DNA of 64,000 bases from Candidatus Kerfeldbacteria bacterium (GCA_016182555.1 JACPGJ010000003.1:10920-74919); one strand, 5' to 3'; counted from the first letter of the stretch, positions 1,971-27,953 are shown. Notes: a model not told the origin generated them from the sequence alone. Made by a program: numbers and translations.

Positions 1971-1971
1971 T

Positions 1972-4408: not shown

Positions 4409-4549
4409 AAAACCATTTTTTTCAGCGTTCTTTGAGTACTAGTGATTAGTACACACAGAAAGCTGGAGGTGGAGAGAGTACGCGATGTCGAAGCATGCGT
4501 CGTTTATATCGGCATGATCCCCGATTCTCTCCACCTCGTTGCTGTTGTC

Positions 4550-4831: not shown

Positions 4832-5137
4832 GGCATCCTCCCTTTTTTATGCTAACTGGTATGCCATTACCCAGTCAGCGTTTTTGGATGTGCCGCATCC
4901 CACACTTGTGGAACACGGCGCGACGAGTAACGCAGCTGAGGCGCTTCTTTCATGAAAAAGTGAAAGTGAAATGCCCCGAATGCGTCACTCGTCAGGTATT
5001 TGTTTGAGACAACAGCTTTTCAATGTGCGTGTTCCGCTCAAACTACTTCTTTTCTACTGGTTCGGTTTTGCAGCGAACAGAACAAAATAGACTAGCATGG
5101 TTTTTACATTTTGTCAATACTTACTTCTGTCACGCCG

Positions 5138-5166: not shown

Positions 5167-5221
5167 AAAAGTGAAAAAATGGAGCTAACTCCTCATTTTA
5201 ATATAAGCATTTTTGCATATC

Positions 5222-6463
5222 ATGCTCGAATCTGCAATACAGGTAAACAAGCTTTCTAAGGAATTTCGTATACCACATGAGCGCATTACCACCATGCGTG
5301 GTTTTTTTGTCAATATATTTAAGAAGAAACGGTATGAAGATTTTTTAGCGTTGGACAATGTTAGTTTTTCAGTACAAAAAGGAGAGTTCTTTGGAATTAT
5401 TGGAAAAAATGGTTCTGGGAAATCAACGTTATTAAAAATTTTAGCGGGTATTTATAGAGCAGATACCGGAAAGATAAAAATGAATGGTCGGATCTCTCCA
5501 TTTTTGGAATTAGGTATTGGTTTTAATCCAGAATTATCTGGCCGACAGAATATTTATTTAAATGGCGCAGTGTTAGGCATGACCAAGCAACAGATTGATA
5601 AAAAATTTGATGATATCGTCACGTTCTCTGAATTAGAAAGATTTATCGATCAGAAATTGAAAAATTATTCTTCGGGTATGCAAGTGCGATTAGCATTTTC
5701 CGTGGCTATCCATGCGAATCGAGATATTTTACTTATGGATGAAGTATTAGCGGTCGGGGACGCGAATTTTCAGCAAAAATGTTTAGGTGTATTTCGTCAC
5801 CTTCAACGACAAGGCAAAACGATTATTTTTGTTTCTCATGATATGGAAACCATGAAACAATTTGCCGACCGAGTATTAGTGCTACACCGCGGAAAGGTTG
5901 TGACCATCAGCGCTCCTGAACGTGCAGGATATGAATATAGTCAAATTTTAATGCGTGAACATAGCGCAATTCATCAAACAGCCATTGAGCGTGAAGCTCC
6001 TGATACCGTAGACCCTACACCACCAAAACAACAGAAGAAAAAAAATCGTATTGTTGGTATACAATTATTGAATCAACATGATACAGAAACGCAGGTCTTT
6101 GAGTATGGTGATGATATACGTATTCGTATAGAGTTCGATGTACAAGAACTCGTTCCAGAAATGTATGTCGGTCTTGGCATTATTGATAAGCAAACAGATG
6201 CATGGATTTGTGGAAATAATACCTATTTTGATCGATTTAATCACCACTGGAAAGTAGGGAAAAATACCGTGGTATTGAAGTTGCCAAATACCATATTTCA
6301 CAAAGGCGATTTTTATATATTGAGCAGTTTTTTTATTGGAGACCCAAAAGAGAATGCCATGATGGATTTTTATGACAGCCGTGAGCATAATTTTTATTTT
6401 CGTAGTTTTCCTCGAGATCGTCGCAATGGGTTGGTGTTAATGGATCATGAATGGAAACAATAA
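5222..6463 (+). CDS. Polysaccharide/teichoic-acid export ABC transporter ATP-binding protein (Wzt/TagH-like) with a C-terminal extension domain
   Basis: Walker A GIIGKNGSGKST, ABC signature YSSGMQVRLAF and Walker B ILLMDEVLAVGD are all present. A C-terminal extension of about 150 aa beyond the NBD resembles the Wzt substrate-binding extension. The ORF-track start 5213 is a TTG; ATG at 5222. Confidence 0.8.
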   Translation: MLESAIQVNKLSKEFRIPHERITTMRGFFVNIFKKKRYEDFLALDNVSFSVQKGEFFGIIGKNGSGKSTLLKILAGIYRADTGKIKMNGRISPFLELGIGFNPELSGRQNIYLNGAVLGMTKQQIDKKFDDIVTFSELERFIDQKLKNYSSGMQVRLAFSVAIHANRDILLMDEVLAVGDANFQQKCLGVFRHLQRQGKTIIFVSHDMETMKQFADRVLVLHRGKVVTISAPERAGYEYSQILMREHSAIHQTAIEREAPDTVDPTPPKQQKKKNRIVGIQLLNQHDTETQVFEYGDDIRIRIEFDVQELVPEMYVGLGIIDKQTDAWICGNNTYFDRFNHHWKVGKNTVVLKLPNTIFHKGDFYILSSFFIGDPKENAMMDFYDSREHNFYFRSFPRDRRNGLVLMDHEWKQ

Positions 6464-7864: not shown

Positions 7865-9214
7865 ATGAACAAAACCGTCTCTATTGTTACACTCAATTAT
7901 AATGGCAAACAGTATTTGCAACCACTGTTTGAAAGCTTGCAAAAACAAACATACCAACCTTGTGAAATAGTCATGGTAGATAATGCTTCAGTTGATGGGT
8001 CTGTGGAGTTTGTTGAGCAACGGTTTCCGAATGTGCGTATTATTCGCAATAGCGAGAATGTTGGTTTTGCCGGTGGGAATAATAGCGCGCTGCGGCATTG
8101 TCGCGGTGAATATATTGCGCTCATAAACAATGACATGATTGCCGATGAACGCTACATTGAATGGTTAGTACGGTCGTTAGAAGAACAGCAAGCAGATGTT
8201 ACCGGCGGCAAAATTTTGTTTTATACACCGTTTGTGACATTGCGTGTAGAGGTGAAGACATTTGTGCCGAATGAACATAACGGTGGGGGAGATGTACGCG
8301 CGTTGGGCTGTATGATTGCTTCAGATATTGCTATTGATGATGTACCATATAAAAAGAACATATTTTTGGCCAATACGTTTGGCGAAGAAAAAGCTGGTGA
8401 ACTCGCATTTCATTGGTTGAGTAATGAGGCAGTGATTAAAATTCCAGTAGACTTGAAATTGTCGCGGCATCGGCTGCGTATGAAACTGGCGGTTAGCGAT
8501 ATGCAAAAAGAAGAGGAAGTCACTATGCGTTTGGGCGAGGAGGTTATTTTTCAAAAGCGTGTATCAAATCAGTTCAGCGAATGTACTGTGGATATTGATC
8601 CAGCGCTGATCAAAAAATATGTCTGCCATGTGGTGAATAATGCATCATCTGAATTCAATACGCATTCTGGTGGTGGCCGTGATGTTGGTATTTATGAAGA
8701 CGATAAGGGTCAGTATGATACGCCGCATACCGCGCAAGCTATTTGTGGAGGGAGTATGTTGATTCGTCGTGAGGTCATTGATCGTTATGGATTATTTGAT
8801 GATTATTTTTTTGCCTATTACGAAGATACCGATTTTTCTTGGCGTTTGAATCGTGCGGGCAAAAAATTATTTTTTGAGCCACGAGCGTTTGTCTATCATG
8901 TGCATACAGGAACTTCTAAAGAATGGTCTCCGTTTTTTCGATACCACGTAGAACGAAATCGTTTAGCCATGCTATTGAAAAATGCACGGTTATTCGATGC
9001 TGCACGTGAGTGGGGTGGTTTTTTTCTGAAAACAGCTCGTGATGCGTGGCGCATGGTTCGCCGTCGCGTGTTCAAACGTCAACCAAAAACTGAAGCAGAT
9101 AGTGTCGTGTGGATTCATTTGCGGGTTTGTGGTGATTTGCTGCTGCATATTCCGGCATTACTCTGGAAACGTCTCTATTTCGTTATTGCTCTTGAGCAAC
9201 ACGATTCAGTATGA
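7865..9214 (+). CDS. Glycosyltransferase family 2 (rhamnosyl/hexosyltransferase-like)
   Basis: N-terminal SIVTLNYNGKQYL...EIVMVDNASVDGS and the DxD region NNDMIAD give a GT-A fold. A long C-terminal extension follows. Confidence 0.8.
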   Translation: MNKTVSIVTLNYNGKQYLQPLFESLQKQTYQPCEIVMVDNASVDGSVEFVEQRFPNVRIIRNSENVGFAGGNNSALRHCRGEYIALINNDMIADERYIEWLVRSLEEQQADVTGGKILFYTPFVTLRVEVKTFVPNEHNGGGDVRALGCMIASDIAIDDVPYKKNIFLANTFGEEKAGELAFHWLSNEAVIKIPVDLKLSRHRLRMKLAVSDMQKEEEVTMRLGEEVIFQKRVSNQFSECTVDIDPALIKKYVCHVVNNASSEFNTHSGGGRDVGIYEDDKGQYDTPHTAQAICGGSMLIRREVIDRYGLFDDYFFAYYEDTDFSWRLNRAGKKLFFEPRAFVYHVHTGTSKEWSPFFRYHVERNRLAMLLKNARLFDAAREWGGFFLKTARDAWRMVRRRVFKRQPKTEADSVVWIHLRVCGDLLLHIPALLWKRLYFVIALEQHDSV

Positions 9215-10785
9215 AAATCTGTATTTATAATACCTATTTGAATACCATGGGCGGTGGGGAAAAGCACATGGGTGCTCTGGCTGAATATCTCACTCAGTTT
9301 TCCGATATAGAAGTAGATATTTTAACTCACGCACAGGCTAATCTGCTGGAGTTATCCAAAAAATTGCGTATAGATTTATCGCGATGTCGGTTAATTGTAC
9401 AACATGATATTCAGCAAGACATCGAAACTTATAGTGCGCAATACGATCTTTTTATTAATACAACACACTATAGTAAATTGAAACCACGGGCCAAGAAGAA
9501 TGCGTTATTGTTGTTTTTCCCTATACTGCCGGAACTCAGATTTTTAGCAACATCACAACGGTTTAATCGATTATTACACCGGTTCGATGCAACAGAATCG
9601 ATTCGTTTGCTCACTGGGTTTTACCATCAAGAAAAAATTGGTGCATATTTTTCACGACGGTTTGGCCAATGGACACAAAAAACATTTTCATTTCAATTAC
9701 GCGCATATCAAGTAGGGCGACAACAACAGATAAAGATCAATACATTACCACTGCGTTCAGGCCGATCGTTGAGCACCCTCATTGATCACATTCGTTGTCA
9801 TGGTGAGTTGGTACCATTTCGTATTCGCAAAAATACCATTTTGTTAACGTTGACACCATCAACTGCTGAATCCATTATTACAGTGAAGCTCCGTTCAGAC
9901 TTTCAACCATCGAGTAGCGATACTCGGCGTTTAGGTATTTTTATCACCAGTATCCGTTCCGTTTTTCCTTTCACCGCGCTGCGGCATTGGTCTATGCAAC
10001 AATTGGCACGAATTTTGAAACCGTTGCGATATTACAACTACCTTGATGCTTATGATTTCATTATGGTGAATTCAGAATATACTCAACGGTGGTTAAAAAA
10101 ATTATGGAATGCCGATTCATCTATTGTGTATCCGGTGATTGATACCGAAGTATTTTATGCTCCCTCGGCACCGAAAAAAAAGATGATTATTAGCGTTGGG
10201 CGTTTTTTTGAAGGAAGCCATAACAAAAAACATCTAGCGATGATTCGAACATTTAAAAAAATGTATTTAGCAGGTGACATTCCCGATTGGGAATATCATT
10301 TGTGTGGTGGTACTCACCCGGAGCCAGTGCACCAAGCCTATTTACGCCGTATCCAAAATGAAGCTATTGGGTATCCTATTTTTGTTCACCCAGACATTCC
10401 ATTTCAAGAATTGCGTAAACGGTATCCACAAGCGTTGATTTTTTGGCATGCGTCTGGTTTTGAAGAAAATGAGCAACGTCACCCAGACCGTTTTGAACAT
10501 TTTGGCATTACCACGGTTGAAGCCATGACTGCTGGTTGTATTCCTGTAGTCATTGGAAAAGCGGGGCAATTAGAAATTGTTACACACGGGAAGAATGGAT
10601 TTTTATGGCAAACCATGGATGAATGTATGCAGTATACCAAACGCGTGATGCAAATGCCTTCATCAGAACAGCAGCGTATGTCTGAGAGAGCTCGAGAACG
10701 TGGTACGCAATTTTCTCGAAAACATTGTGAGCAGCAACTCGCAACCGCGTTTGAACCCGTGTTGACTGAATTGCGAAAATCATGA
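9211..10785 (+). CDS. Glycosyltransferase family 4 (GT-B, retaining) with a long N-terminal domain
   Basis: The C-terminal EX7E motif region RFEHFGITTVEAMTAGCIPVV...GKNGFLW is typical of GT4. Overlaps neighbours by 4 nt. Confidence 0.75.
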   Translation: MKICIYNTYLNTMGGGEKHMGALAEYLTQFSDIEVDILTHAQANLLELSKKLRIDLSRCRLIVQHDIQQDIETYSAQYDLFINTTHYSKLKPRAKKNALLLFFPILPELRFLATSQRFNRLLHRFDATESIRLLTGFYHQEKIGAYFSRRFGQWTQKTFSFQLRAYQVGRQQQIKINTLPLRSGRSLSTLIDHIRCHGELVPFRIRKNTILLTLTPSTAESIITVKLRSDFQPSSSDTRRLGIFITSIRSVFPFTALRHWSMQQLARILKPLRYYNYLDAYDFIMVNSEYTQRWLKKLWNADSSIVYPVIDTEVFYAPSAPKKKMIISVGRFFEGSHNKKHLAMIRTFKKMYLAGDIPDWEYHLCGGTHPEPVHQAYLRRIQNEAIGYPIFVHPDIPFQELRKRYPQALIFWHASGFEENEQRHPDRFEHFGITTVEAMTAGCIPVVIGKAGQLEIVTHGKNGFLWQTMDECMQYTKRVMQMPSSEQQRMSERARERGTQFSRKHCEQQLATAFEPVLTELRKS

Positions 10786-12302
10786 ATGGGCTTTATCGAT
10801 TCTATCGAAATCATATTAAGCGCTATATTCCGCGTCGTGTATTGAATGTCATATTGAGTGTATTCGGTGTGCATGGTTTTGCCAACGAGCAGAAGCATAT
10901 CGATCAGTCATTTGTGGTACGACAGCCATATGCATCATGCTTACGGGTGCGGAAATTTTTTTCTACGCGTAGACTCGCTCGTCAATTGCTCACTCGCGTT
11001 ACACTGATGCCAAACATATTTGTATTGATTGATGATGGAAAATTGACGTATCAAGCATTGATGCAAAAAATGGAAAACATGCATTCGGATTATGTATTGC
11101 TGGTGAATCCGAGTGATCATTTTTTTTCTGATACATTGCTGCAATATACAGCGGCAGTGTGCGAGAATCCAGATGCAAAAATAGTCTATGGTGATTATGT
11201 GGTACGTTCTGCTGGGCGTATGACTGCCGTATATTTGCCACATTTTTCTCCGTATTATTTCCAGCAGATTCGGTATATTCCGCATACAGCCCTTATTCAT
11301 ATTTCGGTGATTCGCGCTTGTCAGCGCCTTCCTCAAGCGAATGAAGAGTTTATGACAGAAGCCATTGCCCAGTGCCAAACGAAAGACGTGCTACACATAC
11401 CCGCATTCCTCACGAGCATTTCCCCAGCAGCTTATCAGTTACTGAATGCCGTACGGCCTGTGGTATACACGCTACAGTCGAACGCATTAGTCTCTATTAT
11501 TATTCCAACCAAAGATCATCCAGAATTATTACGTGCCTGTATCGAAAGCATTGCACGTTACACCAAGCAACGATATGAAATACTGATTGTGAATAATCAA
11601 TCAGAGCGCCCGGAAATGTTGAAATATTTGGCTGAATTACGAACGCAGCATACAGTGATTGATTATTCGCAACCATTTGATTATGCAGCAATGAATAATC
11701 TGGCGGCGTCACAGGCGAATGGAGCATATCTATTGTTGCTCAATGATGATATTGTGGCAACAGATGATGGTTGGCTAGAGCAAATGGTGGCGCTTGGCTC
11801 GCAGTCGAAGGTTGGAGTGGTTGGCGCTAAATTAGTATATCCCAATGGCGCTATTCAACATGCCGGATTGTGTTTGACGAGTATCAATAATGGAGTGACG
11901 TATTACTGGCATAAATATTTACGCTCTCGCCGAAAGGATGGTTCGCTTGAACCAGGATATCTTTCTTCAGTAGTGGCCGTGCGTGAAGTTGCAGCGGTAA
12001 CAGGGGCTTGTTTATTGATAAAAAAGCAACTGTTTGATGAGTTGAATGGCTTTGATTCGGAGTTGCATATTGGCTATAATGATGTCGATTTGTGTTTACG
12101 AGCACGAGAACTTGGTTATAGTGTGTTATATACGCCCTATGCAGAATTGATTCACCATGAATCGATGACTCGGAAGGCGAGTGCTCAGGTATCCATGATG
12201 CAACACCCAGAAGACAGTGCACGGTTTATTCACAAATGGAGGCATGTTCTTGAAAAAGGAGATCCGTATGTTAATTCAAAACTGAGCATTAAACAATTCT
12301 AA
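10782..12302 (+). CDS. Glycosyltransferase family 2 (two-domain)
   Basis: The C-terminal half contains VSIIIPTKDHPELLRACIESI...ILIVNNQS...LLLNDDIV and GFDSELHIGYNDVDLCLRARELGYSV (GT2). The N-terminal half is a degenerate GT-like domain. Confidence 0.75.
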   Translation: MNGLYRFYRNHIKRYIPRRVLNVILSVFGVHGFANEQKHIDQSFVVRQPYASCLRVRKFFSTRRLARQLLTRVTLMPNIFVLIDDGKLTYQALMQKMENMHSDYVLLVNPSDHFFSDTLLQYTAAVCENPDAKIVYGDYVVRSAGRMTAVYLPHFSPYYFQQIRYIPHTALIHISVIRACQRLPQANEEFMTEAIAQCQTKDVLHIPAFLTSISPAAYQLLNAVRPVVYTLQSNALVSIIIPTKDHPELLRACIESIARYTKQRYEILIVNNQSERPEMLKYLAELRTQHTVIDYSQPFDYAAMNNLAASQANGAYLLLLNDDIVATDDGWLEQMVALGSQSKVGVVGAKLVYPNGAIQHAGLCLTSINNGVTYYWHKYLRSRRKDGSLEPGYLSSVVAVREVAAVTGACLLIKKQLFDELNGFDSELHIGYNDVDLCLRARELGYSVLYTPYAELIHHESMTRKASAQVSMMQHPEDSARFIHKWRHVLEKGDPYVNSKLSIKQF

Positions 12303-12392: not shown

Positions 12393-14531
12393 TTAATTTG
12401 TATATATCAATAGTGAATTGAGAACCACGCGGTCAGTGAATTCATGTGGTAGGAGTTGTAATTGCAAATTCAATTCGGTTACATTTTCTGGAATATCGAT
12501 AGCAATATTTTTCCATTCGAAAATATCTTGTAAATGAATATCTTTTGTATTCACCACAGTGCCATCCAGTAATGTCACTATCGCACGAACAATATCATTT
12601 TCCTGAACCCCTTGGCCTTGCAGCGCAATATGCAACTGATGTTGTTGTGATGTTGAAATATGGCTATAGGTAACCTGCCCACCGGTAATATTTGTAGAAG
12701 TGATTCCATCAAATGTTCGTCCGCCAATGCTGGATTGCTGTAGGACGTTATTTTTTTCAAGAGAAATCGAGGGATTCTGATATTCATAGCTTCCTAAATC
12801 ACTTGCATAGAGCAAAGTTGATTTCACCTCGCTTGTGTCTGGTTCAATCGCAACAATGATAGTTTTCTGTTCATCTGAATCATTGTTGGTATGTAATATT
12901 TCTACACGTGGTTGTTGGGAAATTTGTTCCAGCATTTTTCCCCCATTATTAGGCAATGCATCGGCATGCAGAACGACATGGGTAATACCGAGTAGTTCAA
13001 GATAATCAATGCTGGTATTATCAGGAAAATTGGAAATAACCGATTCAGAGAAATGATAATCTGGCGGAAGATATCCGCTATATCCATTGAATATCGGCTT
13101 CCAATGGCACCGAGAATTAAAAATATAGTGCACGGTTTCAAATGGATCAGCATAAAATGGGAGTTCGACTAGTGATTGTATATCTGGGTTTGTTCGTACT
13201 GCGTCATAGATAGCAGGGCATTCAACATGACTCACCACCTGGTTTGCCATATTGGTGTCATACGCATCAAAGAGAATAGAAAATGGTAGAAGCAGTGCCA
13301 CGATATATCGTACAACCGGACGTTTGATATGAATGGAGCGAATCGTATAGGCAACGACAATGGAAAGGCAGAGCAATACGATAATAGCCATGCGGCTCGG
13401 TGCACGAATAAATTGAAACGCTGGTATAGATTGAATAGCGAAAAATGGAAGAGGAATTTTTAATGTTTGATCAAATAGATGGAGCGCTGGGCCCATTGAA
13501 AGAATAATAAACAGGATAACGCCCACGCCGTAGATGGAAAATATTCTACTTTCTTTTTGTAATTTTTTTCGCTGATAGATTGCATAGATGAACAATAGTA
13601 ATGGAGCAAATCCAAGGAAGTTGATGTTTTCGAGCCAACGTTCTTTATGCAGCCCAACCCATGATACGAGATATTGGGGGTAGCTATAAGGAGAAGGGAT
13701 GAGATATCCACCAAGATCGGCGGAATAACCAATAACCTCATGAATAGAGAATGCTGAATGTTCTTGATGATTGAATTGCATGTACGCATAGGCAAATGGA
13801 CCAATCAACAGGAGAAACAGTGTGCCGGCAATGGCGATATCTATGAAGAGTGATTTACAGTGTGTTTGCAGTCGTGTTCGAATAGTTTTCATATTCGCAG
13901 CAAGTAGATAGAGTGTCAGAAATCCGAGAAACGCTCCATTATACCAGCTGGCCAGTGCTTGCGCAGCAAACAGTAAGGTAAAAATGATAAGCATTGAACG
14001 TTTCCACTGTTCTATATATTTTTGCAAACAGAGCACCGCAAAGGGAATAAAGATAATGGATAGATTTTGAAAATGATGAAAACTAATAATGCGATAGGTG
14101 GAAAATCCAAAAATAAGCCCCGCAATGAATGCCGCATATCGGTGGTGAGTATAATGAAGCGCTAAAAGGTATGCACCATATGCCGCAAGGATATAAAAAA
14201 GAAAGATGAGTATATTGTAAGTGGCAATGGTATTATGAGTGATCGCATAGATGGGGAGAGCCATGATGCTCTGCGTCAGTAATAAATCACTGTACAGAAG
14301 CACTTGGTGGTGTGGATAGAAAATATTGGCGTTGAGTAATTGTAATGGGTGAGTAGTGAGTGCGTGCATGTTCCAGCTGATGATCCAGTTGAGCAGGAGA
14401 TTATCTCTATTTAAGATACGAGAGCCAACATGAGATAATAGTGGATAACAAAAAAAAGTTGCTACAAGGCTATAAAGGAAAATCACAACCAAATGATGAC
14501 CATGTCGGAATTTTCCTTTGAGATGATGCAT
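12393..14531 (-). CDS. Large polytopic membrane protein, GT-C-like (ArnT/PMT/YfhO-type) putative lipid-linked-sugar glycosyltransferase with a C-terminal extracytoplasmic domain
   Basis: 712 aa. The N-terminal roughly 450 aa have many predicted TM helices and the C-terminal about 250 aa are soluble. It is the last gene of the operon UXS, GT2, this gene; its ATG abuts the stop of the GT2 gene. Confidence 0.5.
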   Translation of the reverse strand: MHHLKGKFRHGHHLVVIFLYSLVATFFCYPLLSHVGSRILNRDNLLLNWIISWNMHALTTHPLQLLNANIFYPHHQVLLYSDLLLTQSIMALPIYAITHNTIATYNILIFLFYILAAYGAYLLALHYTHHRYAAFIAGLIFGFSTYRIISFHHFQNLSIIFIPFAVLCLQKYIEQWKRSMLIIFTLLFAAQALASWYNGAFLGFLTLYLLAANMKTIRTRLQTHCKSLFIDIAIAGTLFLLLIGPFAYAYMQFNHQEHSAFSIHEVIGYSADLGGYLIPSPYSYPQYLVSWVGLHKERWLENINFLGFAPLLLFIYAIYQRKKLQKESRIFSIYGVGVILFIILSMGPALHLFDQTLKIPLPFFAIQSIPAFQFIRAPSRMAIIVLLCLSIVVAYTIRSIHIKRPVVRYIVALLLPFSILFDAYDTNMANQVVSHVECPAIYDAVRTNPDIQSLVELPFYADPFETVHYIFNSRCHWKPIFNGYSGYLPPDYHFSESVISNFPDNTSIDYLELLGITHVVLHADALPNNGGKMLEQISQQPRVEILHTNNDSDEQKTIIVAIEPDTSEVKSTLLYASDLGSYEYQNPSISLEKNNVLQQSSIGGRTFDGITSTNITGGQVTYSHISTSQQHQLHIALQGQGVQENDIVRAIVTLLDGTVVNTKDIHLQDIFEWKNIAIDIPENVTELNLQLQLLPHEFTDRVVLNSLLIYTN

Positions 14532-15272
14532 TTATTTATCAAGAAAGTTATATTTCACAATACACCACATGGCTTCAACACCATCTTTCCAGCCGATTTT
14601 TTTACCTTCGTCATAGGTGCGGCCATTATAAGAAATGGCTATTTCATAAATGCGGCATTTTCCAGCTTTCGACAGTTTTGCGAGGCGTGCAGTCATTTCT
14701 GGCTCAAAACCGAACCGCTTGGATTGCAGTTTTGGCAGAATTTCTTTCAGCATTTCTTTGGTGAACACTTTGTAACAGGTCTCCATATCGGTCAGGTTCA
14801 AGTTGGTACACATGTTGGAAAACATGGTAAGCACTTTATTGCCAACCGAATGCCAAAAATAGAGCACGCGGTGTGGGCGACCACTCAAAAAGCGTGAACC
14901 AAATACGGCATCGGCTTTCCCTTCAATGATTGGTCGAAGTAAATCAGGGTATTCATTTGGGTCATATTCCAAATCTGCGTCTTGCACAATCACAATATCG
15001 CCAGCGACATGTTCAAAACCCGTTTTCAACGCCGCGCCTTTCCCTTGATTCACCTCATGATGAACCACGGTATATTTGTCTTTGTATTTTTCTAAAATTT
15101 CGCGCGATTTGTCGCGGCTACAATCATTCACAAAAATGAGCTGTTTTTTTAAGCCCAAGGTATCAGTCGCTTCGACGCGCTCAATAATATGCTCTAATGT
15201 TCGCTCTTCGTTATAGACCGGAATAACAATGCTCACGGTAGAAAAATGTTTGGCGGAAGACATGGGAGGCAA
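14532..15272 (-). CDS. GT2 polyprenol-phosphate glycosyltransferase, DPM1-like catalytic domain without a membrane anchor
   Basis: VSIVIPVYNEERTLEHII...IFVNDCSRDKSREIL...IVIVQDADLEYDP (DPM1/GtrB-type GT-A). 246 aa. Confidence 0.75.
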   Translation of the reverse strand: MPPMSSAKHFSTVSIVIPVYNEERTLEHIIERVEATDTLGLKKQLIFVNDCSRDKSREILEKYKDKYTVVHHEVNQGKGAALKTGFEHVAGDIVIVQDADLEYDPNEYPDLLRPIIEGKADAVFGSRFLSGRPHRVLYFWHSVGNKVLTMFSNMCTNLNLTDMETCYKVFTKEMLKEILPKLQSKRFGFEPEMTARLAKLSKAGKCRIYEIAISYNGRTYDEGKKIGWKDGVEAMWCIVKYNFLDK

Positions 15273-15292
15273 TTAATAATACCAGAGCCATC

Positions 15293-16222
15293 TTACACAA
15301 TATGGCGGAAATATTCAATAGTTTTGCCTAATCCTTCTTCTAAAGCGATTTTGGGTTCCCAACCAAGCTCTTTTTTGGCAATGCTGATTTCTGGCTGCCG
15401 TTGTTTGGGGTCATCTTGAGGAAGTGGTTCGTAGACAATCTTGCTGGTGCTTTCCGGAATCATGCTGAGCACCTTTTCTGCGAGTTGCTTAATGGTAAAT
15501 TCACCTGGGTTGCCTAAGTTCACCGGGCCAATGATATGTTCTGTATTCATCATACGCACCATCCCTTCCACGACATCATCGACATATTGAAAACTGCGGG
15601 TTTGCGAACCATCGCCGTAGATGGTGATATCTTTGTTTTGCAGAGCTTGCACAATAAAATTGGAAACCACGCGGCCGTCATTTGGGTGCATATTCGGGCC
15701 GTAGGTATTGAAAATACGCACCACGCGAATATCCACTTGATGTTGGCGGTAATAATCGAAAAACAGGGTTTCGGCGCAGCGTTTGCCTTCATCATAGCAG
15801 GAACGAATGCCAATGGGATTGACGCGGCCCCAATAGGATTCGGGTTGTGGGTGCACTTCAGGGTCGCCGTATACTTCAGAAGTCGAGGCTTGGAGAATGC
15901 GGGCGCGGGTACGTTTTGCCAGACCCAACATATTAATGGCGCCGTGAACCGATGTTTTGGTTGTTTGCACTGGGTCAAACTGGTAGTGCACAGGTGAGGC
16001 TGGGCAAGCGAGGTTATAAATTTGATTGACTTCTACATAGAGCGGAAATGTGACATCATGGCGCATCACTTCGAAATGTTTGTTCTCCATGAGGTCCAGA
16101 ATATTACTTTTGTTGCCAGTAAAAAAATTATCAACACAGAGCACTTCATGCCCTTCTGAAAGTAACCGTCTGCATAAATGTGAGCCAATAAAACCAGCTC
16201 CTCCAGTGATTAATATTTTCAT
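15293..16222 (-). CDS. uxs: UDP-glucuronate decarboxylase (UDP-xylose synthase, UXS/ArnA-decarboxylase-like extended SDR)
   Basis: [41 protein letters not shown] is the UXS-type N-terminus. YxxxK is present (YDEGKRCAE). 309 aa. Confidence 0.8.
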
Positions 16223-16295: not shown

Positions 16296-16724
16296 ATGAA
16301 ACACCTATTTTTTCAAATGATGCGGTTCGGAGTGGTAGGGGTAGGGAACATGCTCCTCGACTTGTTGATTTACACGTTGCTCACGCGTACAAGTGATTTT
16401 TTCCAGCACTATTATCTTCTTGCTGCTTTTGTTGCGTTTATTATTTCGGCATCAAATAGCTATATTTGGAATAAGCGTTGGACATTCAAAGACAAGGTGC
16501 AATTCACCCATACACAGTTGATCAAATTTTATATTGCCTCGGCGATTGCGTTATCTATAAATGAAACAGTATTATGGATCCTTGTTCGTCATCTGGGCAT
16601 ATTTGATATTGTGGCAAAATTAATGGCTTCCATCTCTGCGGGTGGAATGAATTTCGTTTTACAGAAATTTTGGATTTTTCGCCTGCGCGCTATCAAACCG
16701 GAAACGCCAATGCAGGAACAATAA
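16296..16724 (+). CDS. GtrA-family membrane protein (polysaccharide biosynthesis/lipid-linked sugar translocation)
   Basis: 142 aa with 4 TM helices. N-terminal MMRFGVVGVGNMLLDLLIYTLL and C-terminal LQKFWIFR are typical of GtrA. Confidence 0.7.
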   Translation: MKHLFFQMMRFGVVGVGNMLLDLLIYTLLTRTSDFFQHYYLLAAFVAFIISASNSYIWNKRWTFKDKVQFTHTQLIKFYIASAIALSINETVLWILVRHLGIFDIVAKLMASISAGGMNFVLQKFWIFRLRAIKPETPMQEQ

Positions 16725-16727: not shown

Positions 16728-17417
16728 TTACGCTTTTTTTCGCATCACCAATAATTGGTGTAAAGCGTATATTTTTTTGTACTTCAAAATTTCAAATTCA
16801 TCTCCAAATAAACGGTACAAATCTTCTTTAGAAAAATCGTTGACATGCCATTCAGAAAATTCTTTTTCAATACCCTTCATTAAAAAATCGAATATTTTTA
16901 AGCGATTTAATATTATTTTAATATTATTTTTTGTTTTTTCATACGGAACGGTAATAATGACATACTGTTCTGGAGTCGCAATTTTTTTCAGATTGGCAAC
17001 TGCGGCATTGATATCAGGAATATGTTCCAATGTTTCAGAACAGACAATAAAATTCAAGTTCGGAATATGTAATTCCATCTGTTCACTCGCCAAATCTGAT
17101 TGTTCTAATACAACTCCGTCACCTAAATTTTTTCTTGCTTCATCTAATGCGACAGTAGAAATATCTTGTCCGTAAAATTTTGCACGCGGAAAAAAAGAGC
17201 GCAAAATAGATAACAAACGACCGGCTTCACAACCAATTTCCAATAATGAAAATTGATCATTACTTTTCCGTTCACGAATTTCTTTCGCAATGGCTTCGGC
17301 TCGTTTTTTTTCTACACGACCGGCAAGGCCTGTGTAGGGTGTAGGGTGCTTCAAGAACATTTCATTATTCCACTCTGCAAGATTTTCTGCTGGTGGTTGG
17401 CTAGGAGATTTGGACAT
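16728..17417 (-). CDS. Class I SAM-dependent methyltransferase
   Basis: Motif I LLEIGCEAGRLL and motif II/post-I FIVCSETLEHI. 229 aa. Confidence 0.7.
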   Translation of the reverse strand: MSKSPSQPPAENLAEWNNEMFLKHPTPYTGLAGRVEKKRAEAIAKEIRERKSNDQFSLLEIGCEAGRLLSILRSFFPRAKFYGQDISTVALDEARKNLGDGVVLEQSDLASEQMELHIPNLNFIVCSETLEHIPDINAAVANLKKIATPEQYVIITVPYEKTKNNIKIILNRLKIFDFLMKGIEKEFSEWHVNDFSKEDLYRLFGDEFEILKYKKIYALHQLLVMRKKA

Positions 17418-17579: not shown

Positions 17580-18530
17580 ATGACGAACAACTCATTTCGC
17601 CTTTCAGTCATTTTACCCATATTTAATGAAGCTGGCAGCATTCCAGAACTCGTGAAACGTTGTCGTGCAGCATTGAGTGTGTATGAGCAGTATGAATTAA
17701 TTTTTGTTGATGATCGGAGCAGCGATGATTCGTTTCAGTTATTGTCTCAGCTGGCAAAAGAAGACCCGACACACATTAAAGTGATTCGCTTTTCGCGAAA
17801 TTTTGGTCACCAAATAGCGATTACTGCTGGTTTGGATATTGCGTCCGGTGACGCGGTAGTGATTATGGATAGTGATTTGCAAGATCCCCCAGAATTGATT
17901 CCAGAGATGTTAGTGAAGTGGCAAGAAGGATATGAGGTAGTGTATGCACGTCGTCGTTCACGCCGTGATACTCCGTTTAAAAAAGCGACGGCATTTTTGT
18001 TCTATCGTATTCTACGCAAACTCGCCAATGTGGATATTCCAACTGATACCGGCGATTTTCGTTTAATGGATAAAAAGGTGGTGCAAGCGTTGCGTGGTAT
18101 GCGTGAACACTCTCGGTTTATGCGCGGGCTCACGTCGTGGACCGGTTTTCGTCAAACCCACATTTTTTTCGACCGCGATGATCGGAAACATGGAGAAACG
18201 CATTATCCGCTCGTGAAAATGGTTAAATTTGCGCTCGATGGTATTACCTCGTTCTCCCATATTCCTCTGCGTATGGCGACCTATGTGGGTTTCTTAAGTG
18301 CCTGTGTTGGGCTGACCGGTGGGTTGTACGCGTTTTATTGGCGTTTTTTCTTACCAGAGGAAACGGTTCCTGGGTGGACCACTATTGTCGTATCCGTTTT
18401 TTTCATCGGTGGGATTCAATTGATTATTTTAGGAGTCATTGGAGAATATATCGGGCGTATTTATACTGAATTGCAAGCTCGTCCGTTGTATATTGTGGAT
18501 AAAAAAATGAATCTTGACGGCGATGAATAA
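17580..18530 (+). CDS. GT2 polyprenyl-phosphate glycosyltransferase (ArnC/GtrB-like) with C-terminal TM helices
   Basis: LSVILPIFNEAGSIPELV...FVDDRSSDDS...VVIMDSDLQDPPELIP is the ArnC/GtrB pattern. Two C-terminal TM helices (GFLSACVGLTGGLYAF..., IVVSVFFIGGIQLIILGVIGEYIG). Confidence 0.8.
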   Translation: MTNNSFRLSVILPIFNEAGSIPELVKRCRAALSVYEQYELIFVDDRSSDDSFQLLSQLAKEDPTHIKVIRFSRNFGHQIAITAGLDIASGDAVVIMDSDLQDPPELIPEMLVKWQEGYEVVYARRRSRRDTPFKKATAFLFYRILRKLANVDIPTDTGDFRLMDKKVVQALRGMREHSRFMRGLTSWTGFRQTHIFFDRDDRKHGETHYPLVKMVKFALDGITSFSHIPLRMATYVGFLSACVGLTGGLYAFYWRFFLPEETVPGWTTIVVSVFFIGGIQLIILGVIGEYIGRIYTELQARPLYIVDKKMNLDGDE

Positions 18531-18927
18531 TGTGTTCGCGCTATTTCGCCAGTATCGGCAAATGATTATCTATATCATTATTGGGTGCACCGGAGCAACC
18601 TTGGATTTTATTATCTTCAGCTTGCTCATTCATTTTGATATTTTGCATTACGTGGTCGCGAATATCGTGAGCGTTTCTCTGGCGATTACGAATAATTTTT
18701 TGTTGAATGCATTTTTTAATTTCAAAATGCGTGATCAGTTTTGGAAACGGTTTTTTTCTTTTTATGCGATTGGGGTTTTGGGGCTCATTGTCACTTCTGC
18801 GTGTTTATATCTGTTTGTTGCGGTATTTCATTTTGAAGTGCATCTATCCAAGTTTTTGATCATCTTTGTGGCATTCTTGTTGCAGTATAACTTAAATAAA
18901 CGCTACAGCTTTAAACAATTTGCATAA
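18514..18927 (+). CDS. GtrA-family membrane protein
   Basis: 137 aa with 4 TM helices. IIIGCTGATLDFIIFSLLI and the LLQYNLNKRYSF tail. Overlaps the upstream gene by 17 nt. Confidence 0.7.
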   Translation: MTAMNNVFALFRQYRQMIIYIIIGCTGATLDFIIFSLLIHFDILHYVVANIVSVSLAITNNFLLNAFFNFKMRDQFWKRFFSFYAIGVLGLIVTSACLYLFVAVFHFEVHLSKFLIIFVAFLLQYNLNKRYSFKQFA

Positions 18928-18930
18928 CCT

Positions 18931-20250
18931 ATGAATAAGAAACATATCGGCATTATTGGGGGCGGATTAACAGGGATGACCGCGGCATTGGAACTGTTAA
19001 AAGATGGCCATGACATTACGATTATTGAAGGTGGATCGCAAACCGGCGGGCTTGCAGCCGGGTTTACATTTGAAGGTGCCAGCTTAGAACATGCTTACCA
19101 CCATGCCTTCAAAACCGATTATGATATTTTGGATTTGATTCAAGAATTAGAATTGAAGGACCAATTGAATTGGTTTGATAGCTCGATGGGTGTGTATTAC
19201 AACGGCCAATTATATCCCTTCCGCACTCCGATCGATTTACTGAAATTTCCGCCATTACGTTTTTGGAGTAAATTTCGTTTAGGCCTAACCGTATTGTATT
19301 TACAACACACAAAAAATTGGAAACGTTTTGAACACGTCACGGCAGCCGAATGGATGCGCAAGCATTGTGGTAAGCAAGCGTATGAAGTTATTTGGAAGCC
19401 GTTATTGCATGGCAAATTTCACCAATATGCTGACCAGGTATCTATGGCTTGGTTATGGGCCCGTATTCACATTCGCGCTAATTCAAAAGAAAAAGGGGAT
19501 TCGCGCGAGAAATTGGGGTATATGACGGGTGGGTTTCATACACTCATTCATGCATTGGAAGAGCGCTTACGCAAAGAAGGCGTGCAGATTCATTTGAATG
19601 AAAAAGTGCGCGGCGTGCGTACCGCAGAACAGGGCACGGTACAGGTAGAAACAGAACAGAAAACGTACACATTTGATGAAGTCATTTCGACGGTTTCTAC
19701 TCATCTTTTTTCACAAATGCTTGATTCAAAAGACACGACGTTAGCGAACTATAAAAAACAATTGGCGAGCGTGCAGTATTTAGGCGCAGCATTAGTCATT
19801 TTTTCTTCGGAACAATCGTTGAGCCCGTATTATTGGGTGAATGTGAATGATTCGGCTTCACCATTCTTAGCGTTCATTCAACATACGAATTTAGCACCGA
19901 CGAGTTGGTACAATAATCGGCAGGTGTATTATCTGGCGACATACGTTCCCCATGGTCATCGTTTTTTTACCACCGACGAAGCTGCACTGAAAGAAGAATT
20001 TTTTACCTATCTCAAAAAAATATTTCCTCAATTTTCCCCAGAACAAATACACAACACTCAGGTGATGCGTTTGCGGTATGCGCAACATATCGTGGATACG
20101 AACTACGCAGAAAAAATGCCGGCGCATGTTACGCCGATTCCGCACGTGTACCTTGCTAATTTTTCCCAAATTTTTCCAGAAGATCGCGGCATGAGTTATG
20201 CGATTCGCGAAGGTCGCAAGCAGGCGCAATTATTACGTGAACGATTATGA
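18931..20250 (+). CDS. FAD/NAD(P)-binding oxidoreductase (amine-oxidase / Glf-like Rossmann flavoenzyme family)
   Basis: N-terminal dinucleotide-binding GxGxxG (IGIIGGGLTGMTAALELL) followed by a conserved acidic residue (IIEGG). 439 aa. Sits in an operon between GtrA and GT-C genes. Confidence 0.6.
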   Translation: MNKKHIGIIGGGLTGMTAALELLKDGHDITIIEGGSQTGGLAAGFTFEGASLEHAYHHAFKTDYDILDLIQELELKDQLNWFDSSMGVYYNGQLYPFRTPIDLLKFPPLRFWSKFRLGLTVLYLQHTKNWKRFEHVTAAEWMRKHCGKQAYEVIWKPLLHGKFHQYADQVSMAWLWARIHIRANSKEKGDSREKLGYMTGGFHTLIHALEERLRKEGVQIHLNEKVRGVRTAEQGTVQVETEQKTYTFDEVISTVSTHLFSQMLDSKDTTLANYKKQLASVQYLGAALVIFSSEQSLSPYYWVNVNDSASPFLAFIQHTNLAPTSWYNNRQVYYLATYVPHGHRFFTTDEAALKEEFFTYLKKIFPQFSPEQIHNTQVMRLRYAQHIVDTNYAEKMPAHVTPIPHVYLANFSQIFPEDRGMSYAIREGRKQAQLLRERL

Positions 20251-21887
20251 ATTTTCGTAAGCGATTACAACAACAATCTGTTTATTGGTATGGAGCGATG
20301 GCAGTGATGGTGCTATTTGCCGTTTTTCAATTGGCCACTATCAATCAGTACGGAGTGAGTTGGGACGAAAAAGATGAGCATCTGCTCGCAAACGCGTTGA
20401 TGCAATATATAGAAACGGGGAATGTGAGTGAAATTACGTTAACCGGATATCCTGATTTACGACATTATGGTTCCTCAACGCCATTTTTGATGATGTTGTG
20501 TTCTGTGGTTTCGCGTCAATTTCTCGGGTTGAATGTGGCGAGTGCGAATCATCTGTATATTGTGTTGTTGGGTGTCGTGACTCTCGTGGCAACATATTTG
20601 TGGAGCCGGCGTGTATTTGGAAAAAGAGTCGCATTATGGAGTATTCTTTTTTTGGCGTTATTTCCGCAATTTATTGCTCATGCTCAGTATAACCCTAAAG
20701 ATATTCCCCAAACAGCATATATTGCACTGACGTATTATTTTTTCTATCGGTGCTACCATGATCGAAAATTCATTTTTGCACTACTGGCTGGCGTGGTTTA
20801 TGGTATTGCCTTGTCTACCGTGGTTTCAGTCTTGATTGCGCTACCTATATTTTTTGGCAGCTACGTGCTTTTTATTCTTTTTCAAGACCCCGTTTATCGT
20901 CGTGCTGATTGGAAGCAGTACCTTGGAAAAGACGCCGTATTATTTTTGGTATTTGCTGCCACTGCAGCGCTTACGATGTATGCCACCTGGCCACTCATGT
21001 GGACAGAACCGACTATTTTTATGGACGCCGTGCGCCTGTTTCAACACCATGATTGGAATGGCACGGTGTTGTACTTAGGGACTGTCTCTTATGCCGCTGA
21101 GTTGCCCTGGCATTATGCGCCGTTGTATCTCTTTATTGTTACGCCGCTGTCTACAATCATTTTTTTTGTGTTTGGGCTAGTGTATGCCGGCAAGCAGGTC
21201 TTCAAGCGGGTGCATCTTTCTGCAGCTCACCAAGAAATGACGGGCACAGTGACTGTTCATTTAACCGCGGTATTTCGCTATGGGTCTTTACTATTGTGGG
21301 CGTTGATACCATTGGCGGTGTTTATGTTACCTGGTGCAGTGAATTATGATGGCATTCGACATTTTTTTATGGCTATTCCACCACTCATGATTCTTGCTGG
21401 TATTGGATTACATGCGGTTATTGAGCGTCTCGCCAGTTTGTCTGTGCCGTACAAACGCGTGCTACCTATTGCCATTATTTGCGTGTTTTTATTTTCAATT
21501 GGTGCACAAATTGTACAAATTCATCCGTATGAAGGATCGTATATGAATGAAATTGTTCGTACCGTGATCCCTAAGCACGTTGAAGATTTTTTTGAAGTAG
21601 AGTATTGGGGACCATCCTACCGCGAAGGAGTTAAGTGGCTGAATGCCAATGCTTCACAGAAATCTCGTGTTTGCATCCCGTTTGCGCCACATCTTATTGA
21701 TGCCTACCATACACGCAAAGATCTGTCTTTTGGTTGTGACCAGCCATATAGTTATGTGATGTATTTTACGCGTGGAGGAAAGCGTAATACGCCACAGGAA
21801 TTAACAGATCATGTTGATCAAGCACGACTCGTGTATACCATTTCACGCCAAGGTGCAGATTATTTATATATTTATGAAACGAAGTAA
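20247..21887 (+). CDS. GT-C-fold membrane glycosyltransferase (ArnT/PMT-like), paralog 1
   Basis: 546 aa, polytopic. First periplasmic loop carries the Asp-Glu motif (VSWDEKDE). About half the residues are identical to the downstream gene over FPQFIAHAQYNPKDIPQ...NGTVLYLG. Confidence 0.65.
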   Translation: MNFRKRLQQQSVYWYGAMAVMVLFAVFQLATINQYGVSWDEKDEHLLANALMQYIETGNVSEITLTGYPDLRHYGSSTPFLMMLCSVVSRQFLGLNVASANHLYIVLLGVVTLVATYLWSRRVFGKRVALWSILFLALFPQFIAHAQYNPKDIPQTAYIALTYYFFYRCYHDRKFIFALLAGVVYGIALSTVVSVLIALPIFFGSYVLFILFQDPVYRRADWKQYLGKDAVLFLVFAATAALTMYATWPLMWTEPTIFMDAVRLFQHHDWNGTVLYLGTVSYAAELPWHYAPLYLFIVTPLSTIIFFVFGLVYAGKQVFKRVHLSAAHQEMTGTVTVHLTAVFRYGSLLLWALIPLAVFMLPGAVNYDGIRHFFMAIPPLMILAGIGLHAVIERLASLSVPYKRVLPIAIICVFLFSIGAQIVQIHPYEGSYMNEIVRTVIPKHVEDFFEVEYWGPSYREGVKWLNANASQKSRVCIPFAPHLIDAYHTRKDLSFGCDQPYSYVMYFTRGGKRNTPQELTDHVDQARLVYTISRQGADYLYIYETK

Positions 21888-23457
21888 GTTGTTGAATTTT
21901 TCCACAGCTGCTTATTTGCTGATTGTACTTTTTTTTATCGTGAATGTGGTGACGTTGAAGCAGTATGGCATGACATACGATGAACGGAATTATGCCATGA
22001 TCGGCCAGATGAATGTGGAATATTTTCATACGCTGGATCGTTCACAAATTCACCCGTTAGATGATCTGATGATTTATTATGGACCAGCGTATCACATTGT
22101 TCAACAAGTGTTTGGTTTATTTGCGCAGGCGGTGTTTCATTTAGGGTATATTGATGCCACACATCTTTTTTTGGTATGTACTTCTACCGCCATGTTATTG
22201 GTGGTTTTTTTCTTTGCTCGGTCATTATTCCGCCCATCGGTTGGTTTGTGTACGGTTGTCTTGCTCATGCTGTTTCCACACTTTATTGCCCACGCCCATT
22301 ATAACCCGAAAGATTTACCCGAAGCCGAGATGGTGACCATTAGTTTGTATCTTTTTTATCGGCTCTATAGCACAAAGCGATATGTGTACGCTATTTTAGC
22401 CGGTGCGGTTTACGGTTTTGGTTTAGCCACAGTCGTGAGCATTCTTTTAGCCGTGCCAATATTTGTTGCGAGTTATCTATCTTTTTTGGTTTTTCAAGAA
22501 CGAATATATCAACGCAAAGATTGGAGGGTATATTTATTAAAAGATGTATTATTATTTTTTGTATTTGCTATCGTGCTCATGTTCACAATGGTTTTGAGTT
22601 GGCCACTGTTATGGAGCGATCCACACATATTTGTAGAATCTATTCGCTTGTTTCGTCACCATAGTTGGAATGGGCAGGTTTTATATTTTGGCCAAACCTA
22701 TCTTGGTTCTGAAATTCCGTGGCATTATGTGCTGCTATCTCTATTTATGGCTACTCCACTGTTACCATTTTGCTTTTTTATTGTTGGTCTGGTTCGGTCT
22801 GGAAAACAGATACTCCATCGGAAGGAAATGTTTCCATATGCGTTCATACTGTGTTGGGCCGCTCTGCCATTGATCATATTTATGTTGCCTGGTGCTGTGA
22901 ATTATGATGGAATACGACATTTTTTTATGGCTATTCCACCATTGATGATTCTCGCTGGTGTGGGGATGGATGCGGTGATACGCGGGTTAAAAAATATATT
23001 ACACACTCGACCCGTGCTTCTTCCAACTATTTTTTGTATAATCGTCGTCGGTTGGTTGGTTAATGAATCACGCCAAGTACACCCGTATGAAGGTGCCTAT
23101 TTTAATGAATTGGTGCGTCTCATCATTCCTGCACATATCGAAACTGTGTTTGAAGTGGAATATTGGGGCGCATCTTACCGAGAAGGTGTTGACTGGTTGA
23201 ATACACATGCCGCACCAAATGCGGTGGTCTGTGTGCCTGATGGTATGCATATGGTTGAAATGTATCCACGCCGTCTAGATATTCTCTTGCATTGTGGTGA
23301 TGACTCTACGTATGTCATGTATTATACGCGTGGTGGTCCAAGAAAAATTCCTGCGCCTATGTTATTGAACCAACAATCAACGCAGCGTGTCTACACTATC
23401 AGCCGGCAACATTCGGATTATCTGTATATTGTTTCTATTTCATCAGTATCGCAGTAA
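21874..23457 (+). CDS. GT-C-fold membrane glycosyltransferase (ArnT/PMT-like), tandem paralog 2
   Basis: The start MKRSKLLNF at 21874 overlaps the upstream stop by 14 nt; the ORF-track 5' extension from 21811 is rejected. FPHFIAHAHYNPKDLPE...NGQVLYFG is collinear with paralog 1. The loop has a DE motif (MTYDERN). Confidence 0.65.
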   Translation: MKRSKLLNFSTAAYLLIVLFFIVNVVTLKQYGMTYDERNYAMIGQMNVEYFHTLDRSQIHPLDDLMIYYGPAYHIVQQVFGLFAQAVFHLGYIDATHLFLVCTSTAMLLVVFFFARSLFRPSVGLCTVVLLMLFPHFIAHAHYNPKDLPEAEMVTISLYLFYRLYSTKRYVYAILAGAVYGFGLATVVSILLAVPIFVASYLSFLVFQERIYQRKDWRVYLLKDVLLFFVFAIVLMFTMVLSWPLLWSDPHIFVESIRLFRHHSWNGQVLYFGQTYLGSEIPWHYVLLSLFMATPLLPFCFFIVGLVRSGKQILHRKEMFPYAFILCWAALPLIIFMLPGAVNYDGIRHFFMAIPPLMILAGVGMDAVIRGLKNILHTRPVLLPTIFCIIVVGWLVNESRQVHPYEGAYFNELVRLIIPAHIETVFEVEYWGASYREGVDWLNTHAAPNAVVCVPDGMHMVEMYPRRLDILLHCGDDSTYVMYYTRGGPRKIPAPMLLNQQSTQRVYTISRQHSDYLYIVSISSVSQ

Positions 23458-23458
23458 C

Positions 23459-27916: not shown

Positions 27917-27953
27917 ATTATAGAACTTCCGTATTTAGCTAAATGATCACAAA

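Follow-up and report, generated by a model that had tools for sequence, protein, structure and literature searches.

A probable transmembrane glycosylation module with a co-transcribed UDP-xylose synthase in a surface-glycan island of Candidatus Kerfeldbacteria

Three adjacent minus-strand genes at positions 12393–16222 of a 64-kb stretch of bacterial DNA (GCA_016182555.1, JACPGJ010000003.1:10920-74919; hereafter the window, meaning all 64,000 nucleotides) encode a UDP-xylose synthase (UXS), a family 2 glycosyltransferase (GT2) and a 712-aa membrane protein with a GT-C glycosyltransferase fold. The nearest database entry is a metagenome-assembled genome of Candidatus Kerfeldbacteria, a lineage of the Candidate Phyla Radiation (CPR). 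Together with a divergent GtrA-like gene, these genes very probably form a multi-component transmembrane glycosylation module of the GtrA/GtrB/GT-C type, a reading that concerns the mechanism at the level of the module. The likeliest single candidate for the lipid-linked sugar that they handle is xylose supplied by the co-transcribed UXS, an assignment that we make tentatively.

Components of the unit

The unit and its immediate flank comprise the following features, in window coordinates:

12393–14531, minus strand: GT-C gene, 712 aa, ATG start
12396–12818, minus strand: C-terminal beta-sandwich of the GT-C protein (aa 572–712), a putative carbohydrate-binding module (CBM) for the acceptor glycan
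14403–14405, minus strand: codon of GT-C Asp43, the candidate catalytic residue; the first transmembrane helix (TM1) leads into an extracytoplasmic loop, the first, that carries it within the motif R-D-N-L-L
14532–15263, minus strand: GT2 gene, a soluble polyisoprenyl-phosphate glycosyltransferase of DPM1/ArnC/GtrB type, 243 aa from the ATG at 15263 (14532–15272 and 246 aa if read from a TTG)
15293–16222, minus strand: UXS gene, 309 aa
16223–16295: divergent intergenic region of 73 bp between the UXS and GtrA-like genes, the presumed promoter region
16296–16724, plus strand: GtrA-like gene for a small membrane protein of 142 aa with about 4 transmembrane (TM) helices, divergent, 73 bp from UXS
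16728–17417, minus strand: class I S-adenosylmethionine-dependent methyltransferase, 229 aa, with Methyltransf_23/12/31 matches

The gene order and the exact abutment described in the initial annotation are confirmed from the sequence: the GT2 stop codon TAA (14532–14534) meets the GT-C ATG at 14531, with the junction reading GAT AAA TAA ATG CAT CAT, and 20–29 bp separate UXS from GT2, whose 243-aa start agrees with homologues better than the 246-aa TTG start. The UXS, GT2 and GT-C genes are one transcription unit, and a sequence scan of the minus strand found no terminator-like sites inside it. Counts from the promoter and terminator scans were not above those of shuffled controls; two minus-strand sigma-70-like matches, at 16300–16271 and 16271–16243, are weak, with counts no higher than in the shuffled sequences. 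An Rfam scan returned a tRNA-Thr as its sole match. Orthologues occur in up to ten other loci, at 72–84% identity for UXS and GT2 and 36–52% for GT-C, and the three reading frames are therefore real conserved genes rather than chance.

The first enzyme is clearly distinguished from its relatives. In a phmmer search of the Protein Data Bank (PDB), the 309-aa protein matched human UXS1 (hUXS1; 4gll/2b69) with 413 bits (E 8e-123, 59.5% identity over 306 aa), compared with ~135 bits for GalE-like enzymes, ~92–106 for dTDP-glucose dehydratases and 79 for ArnA. It carries the NAD-binding motif GGAGFIGSH at residues 7–15 (GxxGxxG type) and the catalytic motifs STSEVYG at 113–119 (S113-T-S-E116), Y143-DEG-K147 and R209 in GSQTRSF; S-T-S-E116, Y143/K147 and R209 align identically to hUXS1 in a HMMER alignment. 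Against the NCBIfam models ArnA and U4kpxs (bifunctional 4-keto-pentose/xylose synthase) it scored far under the cut-offs. By homology we classify it as a UXS (extended short-chain dehydrogenase/reductase, SDR; EC 4.1.1.35), as initially annotated, and not as an ArnA C-terminal domain, RmlB or a 4,6-dehydratase. Human UXS1 has the same catalytic motifs; the window enzyme differs in lacking the N-terminal membrane anchor and in sitting in a lipid-linked glycosylation operon.

For the GT2, which had been called DPM1-like, sequence profile and fold both point to the enzymes that load sugars onto polyisoprenyl phosphates. The protein matches PF00535 with 118 bits and has its DxD motif at D95-A-D97. 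When a profile of 30 sequences was searched against the PDB, the top 7 matches were all dolichyl-phosphate mannose synthases (DPMS), ArnC or GtrB (E 4e-24 to 8e-19; best values DPMS 4e-24, ArnC 1.5e-21 and GtrB 8e-19), followed by chondroitin synthase at 2e-15. An AlphaFold2 (AF2) model (predicted local distance difference test, pLDDT, 81) gave a Foldseek top 25 made up of ArnC, GtrB and DPMS only, with template-modelling (TM) scores of 0.60–0.78 normalised to the query; ArnC was the best structural match, at 0.76–0.78. No hydrophobic segments were found in the 243 residues, and the C-terminal TM anchor typical of the class is not present. On the strength of sequence and model, we assign it as a polyisoprenyl-phosphate glycosyltransferase without an anchor of its own, presumably held at the membrane in trans by a GtrA-like protein. 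Three of its orthologues (P0143, P0147 and P0161) carry a GtrA/DPMS-TM domain fused at the C-terminus. In L027, where P0161 lies at 8001–9116, the next gene encodes a 547-aa DUF8201 membrane protein, possibly another GT-C family.

The divergent GtrA-like protein scores 99 bits on PF04138 (GtrA_DPMS_TM; cut-off 26) and has about 4 hydrophobic segments. It is a candidate membrane partner of the soluble GT2, a candidate flippase for the lipid-linked sugar, or both. The initial annotation overlooked it, along with the CBM-like tail of the GT-C protein and the phosphoribosyl pyrophosphate (PRPP)/UbiA module described below; with the GtrA-like gene added, the unit corresponds to the known multi-component transmembrane glycosylation systems (PMC8035078). 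One related locus (L007) keeps a GtrA-like orthologue (54% identity) with a methyltransferase alongside. The window has two GtrA proteins, and a BLASTP comparison of both with the GtrA portion of one GT2::GtrA fusion did not discriminate which of them partners the GT2. The methyltransferase at 16728–17417 is a possible accessory gene of uncertain membership; in L008, a methyltransferase gene lies between GT2 and GT-C.

The 712-aa protein had been described as GT-C-like, and its predicted structure agrees. The AF2 model, built with 50 homologues (pLDDT 94.3, predicted TM-score 0.92), has ~11 TM helices (aa 1–424), an outer alpha/beta domain (aa 425–571) and a beta-sandwich (aa 572–712; all-beta from aa 572 by DSSP on the model). 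Foldseek against the PDB returned STT3, PglB, DPY19, EmbB, ArnT, ALG12 and AftA (E 4e-7 to 5e-4, TM-scores 0.4–0.5). By sequence, the protein has no Pfam or NCBIfam match at E<=0.01 and no match among PDB sequences, where the 50-homologue profile yields noise only. Six positions are invariant in the 50 homologues: D43, P73, G307, R376, R380 and P458. The basic N-terminus (MHHLKGKFRHGHH) indicates that the N-terminus is cytoplasmic, which places loop 1, with its conserved Asp, outside. The Foldseek matches of the tail are CBM6 (1gmm), the Xyn30D CBM and the Eph ligand-binding jelly roll; F5/8 type C domains occupy this position in some homologues; and shorter relatives (~555 aa) have no C-terminal beta-sandwich. 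From the model, we assign the protein as a GT-C fold enzyme of a large uncharacterised family, with 17,522 50%-identity cluster representatives at E<=1e-30 and no characterised or solved member found. Among the 50 aligned homologues, five match PTPS_related (PF10131) and two YfhO (PF09586). An hhalign comparison of the GT-C profile with the window's 472-, 671- and 546-aa multi-TM proteins gave no match, the single-sequence templates being too weak for such a comparison.

These findings bear on the public record for this gene. The NCBI model (HYV32_00770) is 658 aa long and begins at Met55; it leaves out positions 14369–14531 and with them TM1 and the invariant Asp43. A precomputed match to PF19830 (DUF6311) exists for this model and for some homologues; a scan with the full-length protein gave none. 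Since the alignment with homologues begins near residue 13 and all 50 of them have Asp43, we take the 712-aa start to be correct and HYV32_00770 to be truncated; a public gene model without the catalytic loop is thereby corrected.

Related loci (given here by number) preserve the pairing of the two glycosyltransferases. A scan of genomes returned 5 loci and a scan of metagenomes 10, and with only these no statistical test of co-occurrence is possible. Wherever the upstream side is visible, a GT-C gene lies directly downstream of the GT2 orthologue or one gene apart (the window, L001, L004, L005, L008, L012, L014, L022–L024 and L026–L030). UXS (78–84% identity) stands in a tight operon with GT2 in six distinct loci, which fall into three arrangements, and the GT2 orthologues linked to it are 71–76% identical by alignment (72–78% by tblastn). 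The arrangements are:

UXS-GT2-GTC: the window, L001 and L030
UXS-GT2-PMT_2-GTC: L023, and L028, where UXS-GT2-PMT_2 is followed by the contig end
UXS-GtrA-534-aa GT-C-like-GT2-136 aa-507 aa: L029

Six further GT2 orthologues, with no UXS in 10–20 kb, are 61–69% identical (L004, L005, L008, L012, L026 and L027). The one from a planctomycete (L026) is paired with PMT_2 between Wzm and Wzt. ADP-heptose genes precede GT2 in L005 and L008 and lie ~4 kb off in L012, and a GT2::GT9 heptosyltransferase fusion is found next door in L008 and L012. These three loci are Moranbacteria-like (L005 5080–9662, L008 460–6176 and L012 2364–11653) and have a short GT2-GT-C pair without the CBM tail; the heptose genes before the short pair are SIS_2, PfkB, HAD and cytidylyltransferase-like. 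GT2::GT9 heptosyltransferase fusions are notable in bacteria without lipopolysaccharide. We had considered L005 and L008 as a parallel module of sugar supply, GT2 and GT-C, and dropped the idea in view of the adjacent GT2::GT9 heptosyltransferase fusions.

Donor sugar and acceptor

The mechanism that we propose has four steps. Firstly, UXS, identified by homology, would convert UDP-glucuronate to UDP-xylose in the cytoplasm; secondly, the anchorless GT2, which the GtrA-like protein would keep at the membrane in the manner of GacI/GacJ or PpgS/Rv3632, would move one sugar from a nucleotide sugar, putatively UDP-xylose, to polyprenyl monophosphate, the reaction of the class in which sequence and fold place it; thirdly, the lipid-linked sugar would be flipped by the GtrA-like protein or by some other flippase; fourthly, the GT-C fold enzyme, acting through Asp43, would transfer the sugar to a surface polymer gripped by the CBM-like tail.

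Xylose is favoured as the sugar because UXS and GT2 stay together in a tight operon in six diverged loci and three arrangements; L007, whose seven-gene operon is lipid-linked-sugar machinery throughout, was also counted in its favour. Several observations weigh against it. The UXS-free GT2 orthologues retain every motif (PxYNEE, QDADLEYDP, GSRF, DMETCYK, FGFEPE and GRTYxEGKKIG), and when six UXS-linked and six UXS-free sequences were aligned, the sole separating column was position 70, which is E/D/P in the former and K/Q in the latter. The GT2 family is very large (at least 8,000 scored matches, the best 120 of these 60–97% identical) and is 60–70% identical across CPR, Planctomycetota and Verrucomicrobiota, which suggests one common donor. 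Neighbouring nucleotide-sugar genes are no reliable guide to the donor, since a GT2::GT9 heptosyltransferase stands beside the heptose genes. Finally, the initial annotation had asked whether the genome encodes a UDP-glucose 6-dehydrogenase, and there is none in the 64-kb window. A possible specificity signature of the GT2 was also rejected: three UXS-linked against three heptose-linked sequences gave 11 differing columns, all conservative, and six against six left only position 70.

The Arn-like route to a lipid-linked pentose put forward in the initial annotation is thus upheld in part: the UXS-GT2 operon in six loci speaks for it, the catalytic motifs kept by UXS-free orthologues speak against it, and a pentose is plausible. 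In its fullest form, the proposal would make the GT2 a UDP-xylose:polyprenyl-phosphate xylosyltransferase and the 712-aa protein the founder of a new family of extracytoplasmic GT-C xylosyltransferases, the two belonging to a Leloir-derived lipid-linked xylopyranose pathway conserved in CPR (at least six loci, three arrangements). We regard this combination as possible and advance it with reserve. The literature consulted describes no bacterial polyprenyl-phosphate xylose made from UDP-xylose; the only such compound that it reports is the PRPP-derived undecaprenyl-phosphate xylofuranose (Und-P-Xylf) (PMC11127046). If the sugar is indeed xylose, polyprenyl-phosphate xylopyranose from UDP-xylose would be a new type of donor in bacterial extracytoplasmic glycosylation, and two very large uncharacterised families (GT-C and GT2) would gain a function.

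It is also possible, though somewhat less likely, that in the same module the GT2 loads Glc, GlcNAc, Gal or Man, sugars in common use, with UXS merely co-transcribed and feeding cytoplasmic Leloir glycosyltransferases such as the GT2, GT4 and GT2 at 7865–12302. The identity of the active-site motifs with and without UXS, the single discriminating column and the conservation of the GT2 across phyla would all fit a common sugar, as would the planctomycete pair between Wzm and Wzt with no UXS nearby and the heptose-linked loci that bring their own GT9 heptosyltransferase. In L022, L030 and L004, moreover, synteny with the unit extends to the convergent genes GT4_524, GT2_449 and Wzt, and in every characterised system of this kind the sugar is Glc, Gal, GlcNAc, GalNAc or a similar one (PMC8035078). 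A bystander UXS is harder to reconcile with an operon that persists through three arrangements, and in L029 the neighbours of UXS are GtrA and a GT-C-like gene, with no Leloir glycosyltransferase. Nor were matches to the window's five Leloir-type enzymes noticed in the 13 kb of L007, where no dedicated test for them was made.

The acceptor in our proposal is a surface polymer. A protein acceptor is unlikely, whether a membrane or S-layer protein with Ser/Thr-rich regions or one of the type IV pilins at 52634–54558, although it would parallel streptococcal PgfS/PgfM1, GtrB/PgtC2 and Pseudomonas TfpW. The few GT-C homologues that match the YfhO and PTPS_related models lend it some support, given that streptococcal YfhO-type GT-Cs glycosylate proteins (PMC11092751), and the window does hold a pilus cluster with N-methyl pilins. 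By contrast, the jelly-roll tail is CBM-like and matches the glycan-binding CBM of the GT136 enzyme ORF12 (PMC11127046), and the Wzt and Leloir glycosyltransferase genes of a polysaccharide pathway, which converge on the unit, keep their synteny with it.

A true Arn-type modification of lipid A, by an ArnA-like decarboxylase, ArnC and ArnT, is effectively refuted: the order of decarboxylase, polyisoprenyl-phosphate glycosyltransferase and GT-C and the top structural match of the GT2 to ArnC recall it, but the SDR is a UXS (413 bits, against 79 to ArnA), no formyltransferase, ArnB, ArnD or ArnE/F is found among all window open reading frames (ORFs) of at least 120 aa, the GT-C resembles neither ArnT nor PMT_2 in sequence, and the host is a CPR bacterium, a group that to our knowledge has neither lipid A nor an outer membrane.

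The surrounding surface-glycan island

From its gene content, we assign the window as a cell-surface glycan island of the ABC-transporter (Wzt) type with rhamnose-pathway genes. Besides a Wzt ATPase that carries a Wzt_C domain, it contains five Leloir-type glycosyltransferases, RmlABCD-like genes and two further lipid-linked-sugar modules:

Leloir-type glycosyltransferases: GT2_449, GT4_524, GT2_506, a 381-aa GT4 and a 310-aa GT2 (the latter two at 30742–32821)
17580–26422, plus strand: seven-gene operon (module 2) encoding, in this order, a GT2, GtrA, an FAD oxidoreductase, a pair of PMT_2 GT-Cs, a multi-TM protein of 671 aa and a GalE-like protein
26498–30724, minus strand: PRPP/UbiA module (module 3), four genes

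Module 2 resembles the streptococcal Pgf cluster (PgfS, the PgfE epimerase and the PgfM GT-Cs) (PMC11092751). Its GT2 is PgfS/ArnC-like (316 aa, 2 TM), its GtrA has 137 aa and its FAD oxidoreductase matches PRK07233 with 498 bits; this triple of GT2, GtrA and FAD oxidoreductase is kept in L001 and L028. A role for the oxidoreductase as a UDP-sugar mutase was considered and rejected: it has no UDP-galactopyranose mutase match, and its matches are protoporphyrinogen-/phytoene-oxidase-like only. The GalE-like gene (25472–26422) had been proposed as a UDP-xylose to UDP-L-arabinose epimerase for the UXS unit. It is the last gene of the separate Pgf-like operon and, since it belongs there, is not part of the unit; in the related loci examined, no GalE-like orthologue lies beside UXS-GT2, the matches to the GalE query being weak SDR cross-hits at 22–32% identity.

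Module 3 is a firmer lipid-linked pentose route than the UXS unit. Its UbiA protein scores 224 bits as a decaprenyl-phosphate phosphoribosyltransferase, above the curated cut-off of 207, and the module further encodes a HAD-IIIA phosphatase (158 aa), an HpnA-like SDR (347 aa) and a 472-aa multi-TM protein. This last protein has about nine hydrophobic segments, with FFLDDY behind TM1, and PMT_2 is present in its homologues, with or without TPR. The module matches the lipid-linked pentofuranose systems that start from PRPP (Und-P-Ribf/Xylf/Araf) (PMC11127046). In L030, a module of this type with an added SMR-type small membrane protein stands divergent beside UXS-GT2-GTC.

Even without xylose, 20 kb in a CPR genome of only ~1 Mb would thus be given over to surface decoration, with three separate modules for lipid-linked sugars and about five GT-C-like proteins, and the decorated surface is the interface of its episymbiotic lifestyle.

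Some further features of the window stand apart from these modules. The Wzt gene with its Wzt_C domain (5213–6463) has no ABC-2 (Wzm) permease gene beside it and is followed by a DUF4915 protein; in L030, Wzt and Wzm are adjacent. Between an RDD-family gene and the Wzt ATPase lies a patch of ~500 bp (4440–4960) with 49–62% GC in sliding 200-bp windows, against ~35% in its flanks. It lacks tRNA genes and matches nothing in Rfam, even at E<=1; its sole ORF (93 aa, 4550–4831, minus strand) is preceded by GGGAGGA and has no Pfam match. The patch could be foreign DNA or an RNA of a new kind. A type IV pilus cluster at 49120–57479 (PilM/N/O-like, PilC, PilB ATPase) includes two N-methyl pilin-like proteins, one with CarboxypepD_reg/SpaA-like domains, and such pilin-like proteins might serve the many nearby GT-Cs as protein acceptors. 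A type I/IIG-like restriction-modification system (N6_Mtase with HSDR_N, specificity subunit) occupies the left edge of the island at 30–3321.

Comparison with known systems

The Arn pathway (ArnA/ArnC/ArnE-F/ArnT) shares a logic with the unit, in that UDP-glucuronate is decarboxylated, a pentose-type sugar is placed on polyprenyl phosphate and flipped, and a GT-C enzyme transfers it. The window unit differs in having no amino-transfer, formylation or deformylation step, and its UXS reduces the 4-keto intermediate to xylose; its GT-C is unrelated in sequence to ArnT, and in a CPR bacterium the acceptor cannot be lipid A.

Another parallel is with the three-component pentofuranose systems, such as ORF15 PPPRS, ORF14 MATE and ORF12 GT136 of Citrobacter youngae and the mycobacterial DPPRS-DprE1/E2-Emb/Aft pathway (PMC11127046). 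There, once the polymer has been exported, a GT-C that bears a C-terminal CBM adds the side-chain sugar from a lipid-linked pentose donor, and Und-P-Xylf is a documented donor (PMC11127046). The donor in these systems is a furanose that a UbiA-type enzyme makes from PRPP, whereas that of the window unit would come from UDP-xylose, a pyranose, through a GT2.

The general scheme is that of the Gram-positive multi-component transmembrane glycosylation systems, among them CsbB/GtcA/YfhO, GtlA/GtcA/GtlB and CsdAB/CflA of L. lactis (PMC8035078). Both have a GT-A polyprenyl-phosphate sugar synthase, a GtrA-type protein and a multi-spanning GT-C, which in the window unit, too, would decorate a surface polymer outside the membrane; in both, the GT-A and GT-C genes are adjacent, and some of the known GT-Cs carry extracellular carbohydrate-binding domains (PMC8035078). 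The Gram-positive systems use Glc, Gal or GlcNAc (PMC8035078). In the window, by contrast, the GT-A enzyme has no TM anchor, the GT-C reaches no Pfam model and is not recognisable as YfhO or PMT_2, and UXS is co-transcribed.

In M. tuberculosis, PpgS/Rv3632/Rv3779 add GalN to arabinogalactan (NCBIfam NF058614), and the window GT2 is only distantly similar to PpgS, scoring 56 bits on the PpgS model against a cut-off of 370. In S. pyogenes, GacI/GacJ/GacL add GlcNAc side chains to rhamnan (PMC8035078; bioRxiv 10.1101/180810). As proposed for the window unit, a short GT2 and a separate small membrane protein make a C55-P or C50-P sugar in these two systems, and a GT-C passes this sugar on to a wall polymer based on rhamnose or arabinose; RmlABCD-like genes and an ABC exporter ATPase are also present in the window. 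The Gac and PpgS donors are N-acetylhexosamines, and GacL is a PMT_2-type GT-C, unlike that of the window. Among the multi-component systems, the window unit fits best the GacI/GacJ variant, in which the GT-A enzyme makes the C55-P sugar jointly with a small membrane protein encoded apart from it. The features that set the unit apart as a variant are the split, anchorless GT2, the GT-C of an uncharacterised family with its CBM tail, and the conserved link to UXS.

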